IMG/VR virus record: IMGVR_UViG_2541047913_000004
DNA: 42,122 nt
DNA from: a virus
Lineage: Duplodnaviria; Heunggongvirae; Uroviricota; Caudoviricetes
Strand: one strand, 5' to 3'
Shown: positions 2,713-42,122 of the stretch, piece after piece
Numbering within the stretch: the first letter of the stretch is position 1
Layout of the letters: every line of letters begins with the position of its first letter
Translations under genes and position numbers: made by a program
Notes under the pieces: generated by a model
The model's database searches: none
What the model saw: only the letters and a program-made list of their open reading frames with translations
What the model was told of the DNA's origin: nothing

Positions 2713-3537
2713 TCAGGCGGTGAAAGTACCAATAAAGGTTTCTACTTTGCTGTCTTTGAATTTCTCAACAAGCAGATCACGAAATTCGTTAGCCATTTCT
2801 TCCTGCACCGCTTCCAGCTGAATAATGCGCAGAACCAGTACAGGACGATCGCCAGTGATAATGCTGAGGCGTAATTTAAACGGACGTTCTTTCAGACCTT
2901 CAAACGGAACGCATTTAAATTCAAATGCCACTGGCATAATGTCTTTGGTCTTCGCTTCGACAGACTCCATCAGGGAGCGTTTGCCGCTGAAGTCATTATC
3001 TTCAAAATCAGCGGTCTGGTTCGCTTCAATTGTGATTTTACGGATCGCCGCAGCCGCTTTGGTTGCCTGAATGGCGTCACCATTAGCATCAAAGCCCACA
3101 AGGTAGTCGGCCCAGTCTTCAATCCATTCTGCCAGTGACTTCTGGGAGTTACGCTCGCCGTTAACAGACAACAGGGCAGAGAACGGTGCTGTCTTTTTCA
3201 GTTTGAGAGTGGCGGTGTTATCTGCGTGACCTGGTTCATCAATAGTACCCAGGTTAAGCACACTGACGGCTCGCATATTATCGGCATCGATAAAGCAGCG
3301 GGTGCCTTCATCTGCAAGATCTTTAGAATAACGGGTAAAGTCATCGATGCTGGCAGTGGAAAGCGCACCACGGAAACGGAAGCGATTTAAATTAAATTTT
3401 TCCAGATCATGAATGCGGAAATTCTCAGGCAATGCCACAGCATCGGCACCAATCTTACTGATAATTTCATTAACACCCTGAGCAGAAATAAGGGCATGGA
3501 TTTGATTAATTGCGGTTGCGTCTAAGTTCTGAGACAT
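2713..3537 (-). CDS. yfdQ: DUF2303-family prophage protein, YfdQ-like, 274 aa
   Basis: Long clean ORF with ATG at 3535-3537; length and position match CPS-53 yfdQ. Confidence 0.75.
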
Positions 3538-3602: not shown

Positions 3603-3965
3603 TTAATGACCTGCTGCGCGTAGTTTTCCGTCAGGTTCACCGGCAAGAGTCAGTATTTGTCCATAGTCTTCCTGCAGAATAGTCAGGCGACCACCGCGAT
3701 TGACATACATCGGCGTTTCGGTGGTGTCTTCTTCGGAAATTTTCCCGCGGTTAGTTGGGCGAACATATGAGAGTTTGTGTTTGATTTTCACACGGTTCTC
3801 ATCAAACGGTTCGATTTCCAGATTGAGTGAGACCTTCCCTTTGGTTTTCGTGTTCATCACACCGGAAGCGACTTCACTGAGAACTGCGCCGATTTTGGTT
3901 TCAAATACGCCGCCGTCCAGCTCCCCGATAAATGCCTGCACATCAGTACTGCGTTCGCTAGCCAT
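3603..3965 (-). CDS. yfdP: Early-left operon protein, YfdP-like, 120 aa
   Basis: Start placed at the internal Met (MASERSTDVQAFIGELDGG...) because a GAGGAG Shine-Dalgarno lies 7 nt upstream of this ATG (3963-3965). The ORF-track extension to 4283 translates the GC-rich structured region into Arg/Cys-rich low-complexity sequence. Confidence 0.65.
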   Translation of the reverse strand: MASERSTDVQAFIGELDGGVFETKIGAVLSEVASGVMNTKTKGKVSLNLEIEPFDENRVKIKHKLSYVRPTNRGKISEEDTTETPMYVNRGGRLTILQEDYGQILTLAGEPDGKLRAAGH

Positions 3966-3989
3966 TTTGCTGCTCCTCATCATATCGAC

Positions 3990-4330
3990 CCTGCAAGGTC
4001 GGTTGGTTTCTCCACAAAACAGAGAAGAACACCTGCGGTGGCAGCCGCCCGGATGGATTGGGTTATGAGCCCGTCGTCCGGTGATGCTCTTCTCTGTTTT
4101 GTAAAAAGGACGGTACCAGCCGGAAGCAAGGGTACAAGCTGGTACCGCCAGGACTACACACAGCATAAAGTTGTGGTGCCGGGTGCCTCCCGGTGCCTGG
4201 CGAAGGTTGCACACCAGGCGGGTGGGTATCCACAGAAGGTCGACTGTCAGCCTCAACCTTAACCCGCGTGCGCTGAGCCGCATTCACCACAACGCTAAGG
4301 ATTCTCTCTGGTTGAAAATACTTAGCTGTT
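3990..4330. ncRNA. Candidate structured non-coding element (unclassified); strand undetermined
   Basis: GC-rich block with no credible ORF in any frame, packed with perfect inverted repeats: a 15-bp stem 4014-4028/4088-4102 enclosing nested hairpins (4035-4048 and 4049-4053/4077-4081); a 10-bp stem 4111-4120/4138-4147 with a 17-nt loop; hairpins at 4179-4193 and 4195-4219. Flanked by AT-rich sequence. Confidence 0.3.
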
Positions 4331-4434
4331 ATGTGCCTGCTTTTAGCCACATCAGGCGAGGTGGACCTGGTTATTCCCCAACAACAAGGATTCGGTTAAT
4401 CTGGATATCCCCAACAACAATAAGAGTATTCAAT

Positions 4435-4950
4435 GTGATCGCTGAATTAACGGCAGCAATGACGGCTATTCGTGAAACAGCCCAGATTGCAAAACTAATG
4501 AACGAGGCAAAAACTCAATCTGAAGTAAATGCGGCTATTGGTGAGCTAAACTCAAAGCTTGCGTCTATTCAGCGCGAATGCGTGTCTCTCGTTGAACTGG
4601 TGGGCTCTTATCAAGAAATAAATGCTTCTCTCAAAGCTAAAATTGCAGAATTCGAAAACTTTGAGGCTCAGACGGAAGGCTATATCCTTAACCAACTTGA
4701 GTCGGGTACTTTTGTATACTCGAAGGAGGTAATCGTGAACGGTGGCAGCATAACCATGCATCTTTGCCCAAAATGTTTTGGACAAAAGATAGTATCGATA
4801 CTTCAACCATTCCCGGTTAGCGAAGATGAGCTTTTTCATAAAAGCAGGTGCCTCCACTGTGAAAATAAGTTTCTGATGAATAAAAATCCGGATTACGTAT
4901 CGCCTCCATCCATTGAGGAGTTGTCCAGAAAACTTAACGGCAATCTGTAG
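4435..4950 (+). CDS. Hypothetical coiled-coil protein with C-terminal zinc ribbon (CPKC...24 aa...CLHC); candidate lysogenic-conversion or exclusion factor
   Basis: GTG at 4435 with an AAGAG Shine-Dalgarno-like motif about 8 nt upstream (alternative ATG at 4459). N-terminal half is heptad-like and Glu/Lys/Ala-rich; C-terminal half has two CxxC pairs. The residue composition looks like a real protein, whereas the antisense ORF is Phe/Leu/Tyr-rich. Followed by its own intrinsic terminator. Confidence 0.6.
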   Translation: MIAELTAAMTAIRETAQIAKLMNEAKTQSEVNAAIGELNSKLASIQRECVSLVELVGSYQEINASLKAKIAEFENFEAQTEGYILNQLESGTFVYSKEVIVNGGSITMHLCPKCFGQKIVSILQPFPVSEDELFHKSRCLHCENKFLMNKNPDYVSPPSIEELSRKLNGNL

Positions 4951-4989
4951 ATTACTACTGTTGTGGATATCCAGATTGTTAAAGAGCTA

Positions 4990-5012
4990 AGCGTCCTGTA
5001 GGGCGCTTTTTT
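4990..5012 (+). terminator. Rho-independent terminator of the zinc-ribbon gene
   Basis: Hairpin agcgtcc-tgta-gggcgct followed by TTTTTT. The stem has a U-G wobble on the plus-strand RNA that would be a C-A mismatch on the minus strand, so it favours the plus orientation. Confidence 0.6.
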
Positions 5013-5097
5013 GTTGCTAACGAATCATCCTGGACTTCATATGCCCCAGGCGGATACTTCGTGGGCGTCCTGCCTGTTTGTTGTTTCTCTTGGGTAC

Positions 5098-5125
5098 ATT
5101 ATGTATCTCAAAGGTACATTGTCAA
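5098..5125 (-). promoter_or_regulatory. pL-like early-left promoter with overlapping operator-like palindromes (OL)
   Basis: Minus strand has a perfect -35 TTGACA (complement of 5120-5125), a 16-nt spacer and -10 CATAAT (complement of 5098-5103). The palindrome TACAT-T-ATGTA (5095-5105) overlaps the -10, and a GGTACA motif is shared with the cI-cro intergenic operators. Confidence 0.55.
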
Positions 5126-5128
5126 GTA

Positions 5129-5150
5129 TAAAAAAACCTGCCGAAGCAGG
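5129..5150 (-). terminator. Rho-independent terminator downstream of the repressor gene
   Basis: Hairpin cctgc-cgaa-gcagg (5137-5150) followed on the minus strand by a run of 7 U (complement of 5130-5136), 15 nt after the cI stop. Confidence 0.6.
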
Positions 5151-5164
5151 TTCATAAACATTGA

Positions 5165-5839
5165 TTAAGCTTTGATTTTGTATCTTCTTGGTTTTCCTGA
5201 GAAAATCACAGTTCCAATTATAGAGCAATTACCGTTGATCTTAATGTAAGGCTCAGGCCAGTTTGGGTTTAACGCTTTGAGATAACGCTGTGTCCCATCT
5301 TCTATCAACCTTTTGAAGGTGGTTTCACCTGTATCGTGCATCAATGCAATAACGTCGTCACCGTGGCAGGCAGGTACTTCAGGATCGACAAAAATCATGT
5401 CTCCCGGGCGGTACTCATCAATCATTGAATCACCTATCACCCGCAAGATATAAGTCATTTCCCCACAGGGTACAGGGCAGGGATACGTTTCTGCTGTGCT
5501 CAAATCAACCTCAGAATATCCAACTTCTTTCCATGCTCCGGCCTGTACCCATGATATGACAGGGACTAATGTGATTTGTTTATTAGTGATTGAAACATCA
5601 GGTTTTTTTGTGATGTTCGTTGTCTGGTGTTCTTGATCGAGCCATCCGACAGGCAGGTCGAAACATTTTTCTATGTGTCGTGCCATGCTGTCACCGATAT
5701 TTTTAGTAGCACCATCTCCCATAAACCTGCTGGTCTGGGTTGGCTCGCGATCAATCATAGTGGCAAAGGAAGAATTCCCGCCAACACCATCTCTCAGTTT
5801 TCTGGCGTTAGACCGCCGGATGTCATGGATTGTTTTCAT
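5165..5839 (-). CDS. cI: CI-type prophage repressor with LexA-like S24 autopeptidase domain, 224 aa
   Basis: C-terminal domain carries the Ser nucleophile in ...VIGDSM... and a downstream Lys (...TFKRL...), as in LexA/CI self-cleaving repressors. Divergently arranged with a Cro-like gene across an operator-containing intergenic region. Confidence 0.85.
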   Translation of the reverse strand: MKTIHDIRRSNARKLRDGVGGNSSFATMIDREPTQTSRFMGDGATKNIGDSMARHIEKCFDLPVGWLDQEHQTTNITKKPDVSITNKQITLVPVISWVQAGAWKEVGYSEVDLSTAETYPCPVPCGEMTYILRVIGDSMIDEYRPGDMIFVDPEVPACHGDDVIALMHDTGETTFKRLIEDGTQRYLKALNPNWPEPYIKINGNCSIIGTVIFSGKPRRYKIKA

Positions 5840-5929
5840 AACGAAATTAAAACCCTCGTACCGTTAAGGTACAAGTATCTTGAAGGTTCATTTCAATCAT
5901 GTAATATGTACATCGGAGGTACATATTGT
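5840..5929. promoter_or_regulatory. OR-like region: pR (rightward), probable pRM (leftward), operator palindromes
   Basis: Plus strand has -35 TTGAAG (5880-5885), a 16-nt spacer and -10 TAATAT (5902-5907) ahead of a GGAGG Shine-Dalgarno and the cro ATG. Palindromes GTACC-N5-GGTAC (5858-5872), ATGTA-ATATG-TACAT (5899-5913) and TGTAC-N7-GTACA (5907-5923) overlap the promoter. Confidence 0.6.
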
Positions 5930-6130
5930 ATGAAAGCGTATTGGGACTCTTTAACCAAAGAACAGCAGGGCGAGTTGGCCGGAAAAGTTGGCTCAACACC
6001 TGGCTACTTACGGCTGGTTTTCAATGGCTATAAAAAAGCCAGTTTTGTGCTGGCTAAAAAACTTGAGCAATGCACGTCAGGTGCAATTACGAAATCTGAC
6101 TTAAGACCGGATATCTATCCGAAAGATTAG
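5930..6130 (+). CDS. cro: Cro/YdaS-like HTH regulator, 66 aa
   Basis: Small ORF divergent from cI with a GGAGG Shine-Dalgarno 9 nt upstream of the ATG; helix-turn-helix-like segment ...GSTPGYLRLVFNGYKKASF... Confidence 0.75.
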   Translation: MKAYWDSLTKEQQGELAGKVGSTPGYLRLVFNGYKKASFVLAKKLEQCTSGAITKSDLRPDIYPKD

Positions 6131-6369
6131 CAGAACACTTTCAATTTTTAACCACAGAACGATGAGGCTAATCGTGGGTAAGCATCACTGGAAAATAGAA
6201 AAACAGCCTGAGTGGTACGTGAAAGCTGTCAGAAAAACTATCGCGGCGTTGCCGGGTGGTTACGCTGAAGCGGCTGATTGGCTCGATGTAACAGAAAACG
6301 CTTTATTCAACCGCCTGAACCGCCCCGGGAATCCTGGAGACTAAACTTCCTGAGAAAGAGGTAAACAGG

Positions 6370-6696
6370 ATGACTAAAAATACTCGTTTTTCCCCCGAAG
6401 TCCGTCAACGGGCAGTCCGTATGGTTCTGGAAAGTCAGAGCGAATATGACTCACAATGGGCGACAATTTGTTCCATTGCTCCAAAGATTGGCTGTACGCC
6501 GGAGACTCTGCGTGTCTGGGTTCGCCAGCATGAGCGGGATACCGGGGGCGGTGATGGAGGGCTCACCACCGCTGAACGTCAGCGTCTGAAAGAGCTGGAA
6601 CGTGAAAATCGTGAACTGCGCCGCAGTAACGATATCCTTCGCCAGGCTTCCGCTTATTTTGCGAAGGCGGAGTTCGACCGCCTCTGGAAAAAATGA
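6370..6696 (+). CDS. IS629 OrfA (transposase N-terminal HTH protein), 108 aa
   Basis: HTH and leucine-zipper-like sequence typical of IS3-family OrfA; ends in an A6 run (6688-6693) that overlaps the orfB start. Confidence 0.9.
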
Positions 6697-7583
6697 TGCC
6701 ACTGCTGGATAAGCTGCGTGAGCAGTACGGGGTCGGACCGCTATGCAGCGAACTGCATATTGCCCCGTCAACGTATTACCACTGTCAGCAACAGCGACAT
6801 CATCCTGATAAACGCAGTGCCCGTGCGCAGCGCGATGACTGGCTGAAGAAAGAGATACAGCGCGTATACGATGAAAATCACAAGGTATACGGTGTGCGTA
6901 AAGTCTGGCGTCAGTTGTTACGGGAAGGTATCAGAGTGGCCAGATGCACTGTGGCACGTCTCATGGCGGTTATGGGACTTGCCGGTGTTCTCCGGGGTAA
7001 AAAGGTCCGTACGACCATCAGCCGGAAAGCCGTTGCCGCAGGCGACCGCGTAAACCGTCAGTTCGTGGCAGAACGACCTGACCAGCTGTGGGTGGCTGAT
7101 TTTACTTACGTCAGCACATGGCGGGGCTTCGTCTATGTGGCGTTCATCATTGATGTGTTTGCCGGATACATCGTGGGGTGGCGGGTCTCATCGTCCATGG
7201 AAACGACATTCGTGCTGGATGCACTGGAGCAGGCGTTATGGGCCCGTCGACCGTCCGGCACGGTCCATCACAGTGATAAAGGTTCTCAGTATGTATCGCT
7301 GGCCTACACACAGCGGCTTAAGGAAGCCGGATTACTGGCATCAACAGGAAGTACAGGCGACTCGTATGACAACGCGATGGCGGAGAGCATCAATGGTCTT
7401 TACAAAGCGGAGGTAATACACCGTAAGAGCTGGAAAAACCGTGCAGAAGTGGAACTGGCCACACTCACGTGGGTGGACTGGTATAACAATCGACGATTGC
7501 TGGAAAGGCTGGGCCATACTCCTCCGGCAGAAGCAGAAAAAGCTTATTATGCTTCCATCGGAAACGATGATCTGGCAGCCTGA
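6693..7583 (+). CDS. IS629 OrfB (DDE transposase catalytic domain), 296 aa
   Basis: DDE/RNase H-fold integrase-like region (...WVADFTYV... ...HSDKGSQY... ...DNAMAES...). Lies in the -1 frame relative to orfA, so an OrfAB fusion by -1 frameshifting at the A6 run is expected. Confidence 0.9.
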
Positions 7584-8034
7584 GTTCACAGATAAAACAC
7601 TCTCCAGGAAACCCGGGGCGGTTCAGCCTTCGTGCAGATGGCGATCAGATTTTCCCGCTGGGATGGGCAATGGTTTTACAGCGTGCTGGTGGCACTCACT
7701 TCATTGCTGATGCTGTGGCGCAGTCTGCAAATGGCGTCTTTGTGTCTCTTCCTGACGTCGAGGATGTGGACAACGCCGATATTAACCAGCGCCTGCTGGA
7801 AGTCATTGAACAGATCGGCAGTTATTCAAAACAGATTCGTTCAGCAATTGAAGACGGTGTAGTGGAACCGCATGAGAAGACAGCAATTAACGACGAGCTG
7901 TACCTCTCAATTTCGAAGCTGCAGGAGCATGCAGCACTGGTCTACAAAATTTTTTGCATTTCAGAAAGTAATGACGCCCGCGAGTGTGCAGCTCCGGGCG
8001 CCGTGGCGTGTCGTGACTGTGGAGAAACTAACGC

Positions 8035-41538: not shown

Positions 41539-42122
41539 TGGCATTCAGAATGAGTGAACAACCACGGACCATAAAAATTTATAATCTGCTGGCCGGAACT
41601 AATGAATTTATTGGTGAAGGTGACGCATATATTCCGCCTCATACAGGTCTGCCAGCAAACAGTACCGATATTGCACCGCCAGATATTCCGGCTGGCTTTG
41701 TGGCTGTTTTCAACAGTGATGAGGCATCGTGGCATCTCGTTGAAGACCATCGGGGTAAAACCGTCTATGACGTGGCTTCCGGCGACGCGTTATTTATTTC
41801 TGAACTCGGCTCATTACCGGAAAATGTCACCTGGTTATCCCCGGAAGGGGAGTTTCAGAAGTGGAACGGCACAACCTGGGTGAAAGATGCAGAAGCAGAA
41901 AAACTGTTCCGGATCCGGGAGGCGGAAGAAACAAAAAACAGCCTGATGCAGGTAGCCAGTGAGCATATTGCGCCACTTCAGGATGCTGCAGATCTGGAAA
42001 TCGCAACGGAGGGAGAAACCTCGTTGCTGGAAGCCTGGAAAAAGTATCGGGTGTTGCTGAACCGTGTTGATACATCAACTGCACCTGATATTGAGTGGCC
42101 TACGAACCCTGTCAGGGAGTAA
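41538..42122 (+). CDS. tfa: Tail fibre assembly protein Tfa, 194 aa
   Basis: 194 aa, coupled by TAATG to stf; lambda Tfa-like; its stop codon is the last 3 nt of the window. Confidence 0.9.

Follow-up and report, generated by a model that had tools for sequence, protein, structure and literature searches.

The 42,122-nucleotide viral record IMGVR_UViG_2541047913_000004 (Caudoviricetes), the whole of which is referred to here as the window, carries beside its repressor gene a minus-strand promoter that is very probably pL, the early-leftward promoter of a lambdoid prophage of the e14/SfV immunity type. This promoter faces a plus-strand gene which, judged by its sequence, is homologous to Rip1, a pore-forming anti-phage protein of prophages, and between the two lies a structured leader RNA supported by covariation. 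At its core, pL with its left operators (OL) is ordinary for the e14/SfV immunity type and effectively of a known kind. The promoter alone therefore matters little, and the novelty lies in the conserved leader RNA and in the slot around the plus-strand gene, the architecture of which appears to be undescribed. Our preferred explanation, in which pL, the slot and silencing of the slot's cargo gene upon prophage induction belong together, is held with moderate confidence; silencing driven by pL, taken by itself, is given even or slightly poorer prospects.

The early-leftward promoter and its operators

The following features define the promoter and its control region.

5098–5125, minus strand: pL promoter, with the -35 hexamer TTGACA at 5125–5120, a 16-nt spacer and the -10 hexamer CATAAT at 5103–5098 (consensus scan).
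5126–5153, minus strand: intrinsic terminator of cI, a hairpin at 5153–5134 and a T run, then ATAC up to the -35 hexamer (terminator scan; an annotated terminator in SfV and Ayreon).
5101–5119, no strand assigned: OL1, ATGTATC-TCAAA-GGTACAT, 0 mismatches to the operator model, filling the pL spacer.
5081–5099, no strand assigned: OL2, 2 mismatches, spanning the edge of the -10 hexamer and the predicted start; its centre lies 20 bp from that of OL1 (repeat D3).
5165–5839, minus strand: cI-like repressor gene of the CohE/YmfK type, 224 aa, with a LexA-like S24 autocleavage domain (Pfam PF00717, Peptidase_S24, 1.5e-26).
5856–5924, no strand assigned: right operator (OR) region between cI and cro, with three 19-bp sites at 5856–5874, 5873–5891 and 5906–5924 (repeat family D1, inverted repeat I4).

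The initial annotation had described a consensus -35 hexamer, a 16-nt spacer and CATAAT on the minus strand, placed 4 nt beyond the cI terminator and overlapped by the palindrome TACAT-T-ATGTA (5095–5105) and by a GGTACA common to the OR region. All of these elements were found by sequence reading and scanning, with the two hexamers matching the sigma-70 consensus at 11 of 12 positions and the -35 hexamer starting 4 nt after the T run of the terminator hairpin. Across both strands of the 42 kb, pL was the sole match of at least 11/12 (0.31 expected under first-order Markov resampling), and at a threshold of at least 10/12 the window held 7 matches against 5.0 expected by the same resampling. 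Transcription is predicted, from the position of the -10 hexamer, to start near 5091.

The palindrome at 5095–5105 proved to be the junction of OL2 and OL1. Repeat and pattern searches yielded an operator model of 19 bp, ATGTAYC-N5-GRTACAT, which was a better fit than the palindrome alone. Allowing three mismatches or fewer, this pattern matched the window 12 times against 3.6 expected, a count reached in none of 100 shuffles, and five of the 12 matches flank cI. A third candidate OL site at 5041–5059 (3 mismatches) was rejected; it lies inside leader hairpin P3 and is probably a chance match.

In a comparison of eight phages, including a Hafnia phage with different flanks and a different repressor length, both hexamers and both half-sites of OL1 were unchanged, and variation was confined to the operator centres, with six versions of the 5-nt OL1 centre. 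Invariant half-sites and hexamers around a variable centre fit an operator that is bound by a repressor dimer inside the promoter. Existing records agree with this assignment: a promoter is annotated at the pL position in phage Ayreon, SfV carries a ‘putative operator region’ at the OR position, and the counterparts of the cI-like gene in SfV, PhiR49_1 and Ayreon are annotated as cI or repressor. The segment comprising pL and the leader had at least a partial match in 1547 of 5426 complete Escherichia coli genomes (~29%), with coverage of at least 80% in 818 of them.

The counterpart in prophage e14 of E. coli K-12

The e14 gene ymfK (cohE) has the same length as the cI-like gene of the window and lies upstream of an identical pL core, with sequence identity running from the -35 hexamer into the leader; e14 and the window also agree in the type of their repressor and Cro. 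Expression of ymfJ, the first gene after the pL core in e14, rises late in the SOS response with a log2 fold change of 4.8, and intE is grouped with it as late SOS-induced (PMC11002266). In a dam mutant, no transcript is more strongly up-regulated than that of ymfJ (PMC11741368). No published direct mapping of the pL start site or of repressor binding was found.

Besides pL, OL1, OL2 and the start of the leader, e14 shares with the window an antisense cargo gene, ymfI, with a GCCTG..GGTGG motif upstream. It differs in that the sense gene ymfJ directly follows the leader, in that the cargo terminator, boxA and bracketing inverted repeat described below are absent, and in that its cargo is unrelated to Rip1.

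A conserved leader RNA at the start of the pL transcript

5020–5081, minus strand: structured pL leader RNA of 62 nt, about +11 to +72, comprising stem P1, a small hairpin and P3.

In the leader, P1 pairs 5081–5077 with 5024–5020, P3 pairs 5050–5046 with 5033–5029, and the small hairpin GGC-AGGAC-GCC is invariant. The element was present in 194 loci (72 sequence classes), beside many immunity types, and these loci include SfV, SfII, SfIV, ST64B, mEp237, SPN3UB, ZF40, YeP1, phiNP and e14. Twenty-six leader bases served as the search pattern and are thus invariant by construction. Across 54 distinct sequences, pair 42–59 was CG in 23, GC in 13, UA in 12 and AU in 5, and pair 44–57 was GC in 21, UA in 13, AU in 12 and CG in 5, while pair 9–70 of the closing stem was GC in 35 and AU in 14. 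Two-sided changes occupied 88 cells, compared to 26 in shuffles, the covariation score was reached in none of 500 shuffles, and slid registers collapsed. A covariance model built from the leader found one copy in the window, at 92 bits.

At gathering thresholds, Rfam returned no match within 3900–5200, and a permissive search gave a sub-threshold match to STnc100 and noise; the leader is not in Rfam. As it is present in K-12 e14, where the record leaves it unannotated, and is absent from Rfam, the leader can be studied in the best-known laboratory strain. Two invariant GGA motifs, in the AGGAC loop and in GGAUGA, might hint at CsrA binding, which is a guess.

Downstream of the leader the loci vary, having sense ORFs (open reading frames), a put-like element (one locus) or a unit of boxA plus cargo. 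The window leader resembles the put RNAs of HK022 in being a cis-acting RNA structure near the start of an early operon in a phage without an N protein. That it might itself be a put-like element was considered and rejected: it exists as a single copy, with none on the pR side, and has no sequence similarity to the HK022 pL leader or putL. In viral contig L217, the leader is followed, at a distance of no more than about 150 nt, by an HK022 putL-like sequence (GAACGGCGCG.CUUUAAACCAUGCGUCGG...), and because this contig has both, leader and put elements are regarded as separate modules that can be combined.

The Rip1-like cargo gene and its slot

4435–4950, plus strand: cargo gene with a GTG start, encoding a 171-aa Rip1-like protein with a putative coiled-coil N-terminal half and a CxxC...CxxC zinc ribbon.
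4989–5014, plus strand: intrinsic terminator of the cargo gene, a hairpin at 4989–5008 plus a T run (terminator scan).
4952–4977, no strand assigned: right arm of inverted repeat I1 (26 nt, 85% complementary), which brackets the cargo gene.
4398–4423, no strand assigned: left arm of the same repeat, directly upstream of the cargo ribosome-binding site.
4335–4420, no strand assigned: left flank of the slot, with the motif GCCTG-N7-CCAC-N2-CAGGC-N3-GTGG (4335–4364) and direct repeats TCCCCAACAACAA at 4375–4387 and 4408–4420.

A phmmer search with the cargo protein matched Protein Data Bank chain 9oox_L, ‘ring interacting pore 1’, with an E-value of 2.6e-7, aligning query residues 11–150 to chain residues 25–159 and both CxxC pairs to each other. 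The N-terminal half gave weak coiled-coil matches in Pfam, and PHROGs placed the protein in phrog_1244 (2.8e-59), an unnamed family. Beyond this, Pfam and PADLOC returned nothing useful for the protein; PADLOC 2023 has no Rip1 model. The start codon was placed by a 171-aa Klebsiella homologue. Further homologues are orf25 of D3112 and HkaP of HK620, annotated as a ‘putative superinfection exclusion protein’, for which a literature search on hkaP returned only unrelated papers.

Rip1 itself is a Pseudomonas prophage protein whose gene lies between terminase genes. When another phage infects, it assembles on rings of that phage's small terminase or portal and forms a pore through which the cell lyses prematurely, acting as a single-protein abortive infection system, and phages escape it through portal or small-terminase mutations (2026 review, PMC13434031). 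The gene of the window resembles it in homology over most of the protein, in being prophage-borne and in lying on the strand opposite to the lytic genes, as does D3112 orf25 between the terminase genes. It differs in its low identity to the solved protein and in its position within the pL leader region rather than between terminase genes, and its role in defence and its trigger are presumed from homology.

In all eight contexts compared (this window, HK620, HK630, D3112, Kp4882-1, RcWaterboi, VW-6B and 606R2), the Rip1-like gene alone runs on the strand opposite to its neighbours, either within a lytic operon or next to the repressor. This orientation against the lytic operon recurs in three unrelated architectures, namely the pL operon, the space between terminase genes and a Mu-like early operon.

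The surroundings of the gene are conserved more tightly than the gene. SfV shares 3900–4364 and 5019–5199 with the window and has different DNA between these blocks, and in Klebsiella phage Kp4882-1 both flanks are nearly the same around a cargo protein 50% identical to that of the window. A scan of viral contigs with the right-flank sequence yielded 124 loci. Their cargoes fall into no fewer than 10 clusters (Rip1-like proteins in several variants, an SfIV_36-like protein, a secreted and a membrane protein, among others), and the different immunity and pL types downstream of them number at least 18. Without exception the cargo lies on the strand opposite to pL, with its start codon ~60 nt after a CCCCAACAACAAGG motif. 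An invertible segment of the Gin/Hin type, bounded by the inverted repeat, was considered and rejected, the cargo orientation being constant in all 10 cargo clusters. Because the slot is conserved more tightly than its cargo and stands beside so many immunity types, it offers a practical marker for new prophage defence genes.

Each boundary of the slot has conserved elements of its own. The GCCTG-N7-CCAC-N2-CAGGC-N3-GTGG motif was found upstream of every antisense cargo examined, with copies at HK620 hkaP (L008, 2398–2430), e14 ymfI (L226, about 3270–3300) and a plus-strand ORF of SfV (L002, about 2384–2416). Variation in the motif is confined to its loops, the four short stem segments being invariant, as would fit an H-type pseudoknot or a site of protein binding; in SfV it is annotated as a terminator. 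The TCCCCAACAACAA repeats are exact and lie 33 bp apart in the 5' region of the cargo, where they may serve as paired sites for a regulator or act in translation; in HK620, a pair of TACCCCTACAG repeats occupies the corresponding position ahead of hkaP. The unannotated plus-strand ORF of SfV (~80 aa, L002 about 2397–2640) overlaps the annotated minus-strand orf33; with the motif ahead of it, this ORF may be an antisense cargo of SfV, and the calling of orf33 may be in error.

Nineteen arm-pair variants, which surround unrelated cargoes, keep the inverted repeat and show compensatory changes. Its wobble pairs (34 A.C against 18 G.U) are affected by register problems, and wobble counts do not assign a strand either for the repeat or for the leader. 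On the other side of the gene, the cargo terminator folds at -11.5 kcal/mol on the plus strand compared to -7.5 kcal/mol on the minus strand, and it was the more stable on the plus strand in all 24 variants (mean -10.8 versus -7.0 kcal/mol), an advantage that stems from a conserved U.G pair. Its stem is conserved and its loop freely variable. From this one-sided stability it follows that cargo transcripts should stop at the hairpin and pL transcripts should leak through it.

boxA and the path to yfdP

4976–4987, minus strand: boxA-like GCUCUUUAACAA, one base after the hairpin in the pL transcript and the sole exact match in the window.
4100–4323, minus strand: STnc100-like structured RNA region, ending in a hairpin at 4147–4111 and a U run at 4110–4102.
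3603–3968, minus strand: yfdP-like gene, ~1.12 kb from the predicted start; no convincing sense-strand gene of the pL operon precedes it in the window (ORF list, PHROGs).

Past the cargo terminator hairpin, the pL transcript reads AGCUCUUUAACAAU, of which 13 nt are identical to the boxA and spacer of rrnG (the 12-nt core and the next base; rrnG sequence from PMC2724277). The transcript thus has the boxA consensus UGCUCUUUA followed by an ACAAU spacer. Among 89 leader-anchored classes, boxA occurred in 27, and each of these 27 had an antisense cargo, compared to 34 of the 62 classes without boxA (Fisher p = 3.7e-6, the classes not being phylogenetically independent). No boxB-like hairpin was found after boxA. 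As the sole element identified that might support read-through, boxA is a candidate for this role.

Between pL and 3985 the terminator scan called no minus-strand terminator, and the consensus scan found no minus-strand promoter-like site between 5090 and 3970. The composition of the antisense cargo RNA has no C-over-G bias of the kind associated with Rho loading (C 22%, G 20%). The STnc100-like region scored 42.4 bits against RF02076 (E 1.6e-7), below the gathering score of 47, and is likely to be a relative of STnc100 rather than a scored member. The hairpin before yfdP has a folding energy of -26.3 kcal/mol (z -4.3), and the terminator scan missed it because of its long loop.

Several minor observations concern this segment. 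The STnc100-like region is GC-rich, and in e14 the equivalent DNA adjoins, and possibly lies within, the annotated coding sequence ‘ymfH’. In Hafnia phage yong2 (L005, 1618–1691, minus strand), ARAGORN called a tRNA-Gly(CCC)-like gene at the position of the STnc100-like region, upstream of the yfdP homologue. Between 4014 and 4102, just before the yfdP ribosome-binding site, lies a long inverted repeat with 25-nt arms (84% complementary). A comparable hairpin with different stem bases was seen by eye in yong2, and the repeat may thus form a hairpin conserved at the RNA level, possibly one at which the transcript is processed.

Proposed regulation and alternative explanations

In the preferred explanation, the LexA-like CI protein of the lysogen would bind OL1 in the promoter spacer and OL2 over the start, keeping pL shut until CI undergoes RecA-stimulated cleavage in the SOS response. 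The transcript, starting near 5091, would present the leader as its first element, pass the cargo terminator, which is predicted to be weak in that direction, and then the rrn-like boxA and spacer, cross the Rip1-like gene in antisense (4950–4435) and the STnc100-like element, and arrive at yfdP and eventually at xis and int. Antisense passage of this kind had been predicted in the initial annotation, and the gene order bears it out, the early-left genes from yfdP to int all lying beyond the plus-strand gene. The Rip1-like gene would be a lysogeny-type ‘moron’ cargo in a slot that points against pL. Upon induction, the most likely consequence would be that polymerase collisions and antisense RNA from pL lower the expression of the abortive-infection protein, and in the repressed prophage the lytic and cargo programmes would be insulated from each other. 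Silencing has a clear rationale, since a prophage has to avoid setting off the abortive-infection pore that it carries itself; if true, running a lytic promoter through the Rip1-like gene would be a simple form of self-immunity for a prophage with a terminase- or portal-triggered pore.

The switch proposed in the initial annotation, with the plus-strand gene expressed while pL is repressed and silenced upon induction, stands in part. The pL-type promoter with operators shared with OR agrees with it, as does the convergent layout, which is systematic rather than accidental across the cargo loci and the Rip1-like contexts. The expression of the plus-strand gene, however, lacks a recognizable sigma-70 promoter.

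This last point is one of several that weigh against the preferred explanation. No sigma-70 match of at least 8/12 was found on the plus strand between 4100 and 4445, and expression of the cargo in the lysogen is for that reason an assumption; nor was a sigma-54, sigma-32 or sigma-E consensus seen by eye upstream of the gene. The initial annotation had called pL strong, which is a guess from its sequence, the 16-nt spacer not being the optimal 17. No convincing sense ORF was found between 5091 and 3969, which leaves ~1.12 kb of untranslated RNA, and a strongly terminator-like hairpin of 13 bp with a U run (4147–4102) stands upstream of yfdP. No N-like antiterminator gene was found by Pfam, PHROGs, PADLOC or inspection of ORFs, and SfV orf33, which occupies the corresponding position, lacks an arginine-rich motif and was assigned to no family. 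With this hairpin, the long untranslated RNA, no N and no second put-like copy, the presumed read-through to yfdP and int needs a mechanism. After DNA damage, expression of the e14 antisense cargo ymfI rose rather than fell (log2 fold change 1.98), although the data may or may not be strand-specific (PMC11002266). Rip1 protein already made would outlast transcriptional silencing, and since the slot also hosts unrelated cargoes, the orientation may provide insulation only.

The most substantial alternative, which we nevertheless consider rather unlikely, is that pL is real and the convergent layout has no regulatory role, the cargo being independent in the manner of a moron through its own promoter and terminator, and self-protection arising because the terminase and portal of the resident phage do not trigger its Rip1. 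The sharing of the slot by at least 10 unrelated cargoes and the dedicated cargo terminator are in keeping with this, and a resident phage that is insensitive to Rip1 is feasible, given the escape mutations in portal and small terminase (PMC13434031); ymfI of e14 was, moreover, not reduced after DNA damage (PMC11002266). It leaves the recurrence of the anti-lytic orientation in three unrelated phage architectures without an account, and a strong promoter, once derepressed, would be expected to interfere with a 516-bp gene through which it fires. Interference between convergent promoters is established in coliphage 186 and in lambda PR and PRE.

An early stop of most pL transcripts, either at the hairpin at 5008–4989 acting as a bidirectional terminator or at 4147–4102, is a further alternative and is judged improbable. 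The products would then be mainly short leader or STnc100-like RNAs, and the genes from yfdP to int would be served by another promoter or by regulated antitermination. The minus strand past the 5008–4989 hairpin reads UAGCUCUUUAAC, which is fairly U-rich, and the hairpin and U run ahead of yfdP, the STnc100-like match just below threshold and the missing N gene all suit such stops. On the other hand, the 5008–4989 hairpin is the weaker on the minus strand in every one of the 24 variants, no other minus-strand promoter-like site lies between 5090 and 3970 to serve the genes beyond, the rrn boxA match past the hairpin makes sense only if polymerase gets through, and e14 intE belongs with ymfJ to the genes induced late in the SOS response (PMC11002266). 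Finally, a chance consensus match with no function has a negligible probability. The expectation of 5.0 matches of at least 10/12 per window is the point in its favour; it is outweighed by the status of pL as the only 11/12 match, by its canonical position and overlap with OR-shared operators, by its invariance across diverged phages including the Hafnia phage and by the SOS induction of its e14 counterpart.

A bolder extension of the preferred explanation, which we regard as speculative and unlikely, is that the window holds a composite RNA device of three parts through which a prophage without N carries defence genes backwards in its early operon. The first part may be an undescribed, covariation-supported 62-nt leader belonging to many enterobacterial temperate phages, including K-12 e14. 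In the second, by analogy with rrn operons, the hairpin and boxA may recruit host Nus factors and thereby carry polymerase through ~1.1 kb of untranslated RNA and past the downstream terminator-like hairpin. In the third, the inverted repeat that begins at the end of boxA may pair across the antisense cargo in the manner of the 16S processing stem. The antisense RNA may thereby be looped out or excised while pL shuts the abortive-infection gene during lytic growth. The slot as a whole, with its leader, one-way terminator, boxA, inverted repeat and left-flank motif, is a candidate for a general solution to the carriage of antisense genes within an operon.

Comparison with known systems

The pL region corresponds in its plan to lambda pL/OL and the annotated pL/OL1–3 of HK620: it follows the repressor terminator and fires away from it, OR-like operators overlap the hexamers, the repressor is SOS-cleavable and the operon contains xis and int. 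The window differs from both in having two clear OL sites of a 7-5-7 architecture, in having no N gene or boxB, and in that the first 1.1 kb of its transcript is untranslated and holds an antisense gene. Coliphage 186 pR/pL, lambda PR versus PRE and oop offer a likeness of another kind, in that a lytic promoter faces a lysogeny-type unit and collisions and antisense RNA are expected. The overlap would be ~650 bp in the window, far longer than the 62 bp of 186.

The order of hairpin then boxA, and the 13 nt identical to rrnG, recall the rrn leader antiterminator with its boxB hairpin, boxA, boxC and 16S processing stem. The likeness extends to the arm of a long-range inverted repeat that directly follows boxA and brackets ~530 nt of untranslated RNA. 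In contrast to rrn, the hairpin of the window acts as the cargo terminator, with its conserved stem and free loop, and no clear boxC was found. A boxA of consensus type is also present in ordinary N-dependent nut sites, such as nutL of HK620.

Wider layout of the window

The ORF list and Pfam matches identify the left 10 kb of the window as the early region of a lambdoid prophage. Every gene from 3968 to 1 is carried on the minus strand, and this early-left set comprises the integrase (1–1164), ORFs of excisionase size and of ea type, an HD hydrolase, YfdQ and YfdP (3603–3968). Past cI, the plus strand carries cro near 5931–6130, followed by ymfL-like genes. The segment 3500–6400 is 99% identical to phage PhiR49_1, the host of which is ECOR13, and, in two blocks, 96–98% identical to SfV, SfIV, Ayreon, cdtI and Stx2c phages.

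A ymfL-like gene downstream of cro is split by an IS3-family element at about 6345–7600 (orfA 6370–6696, orfB 6693–7583), within which Rfam placed an ALIL frameshift pseudoknot at 6651–6767. Because of this interruption, this copy of the prophage may be lytically defective. At 41881–42079, close to the right end, Rfam gave a full-length match to IS009 of 225.7 bits.

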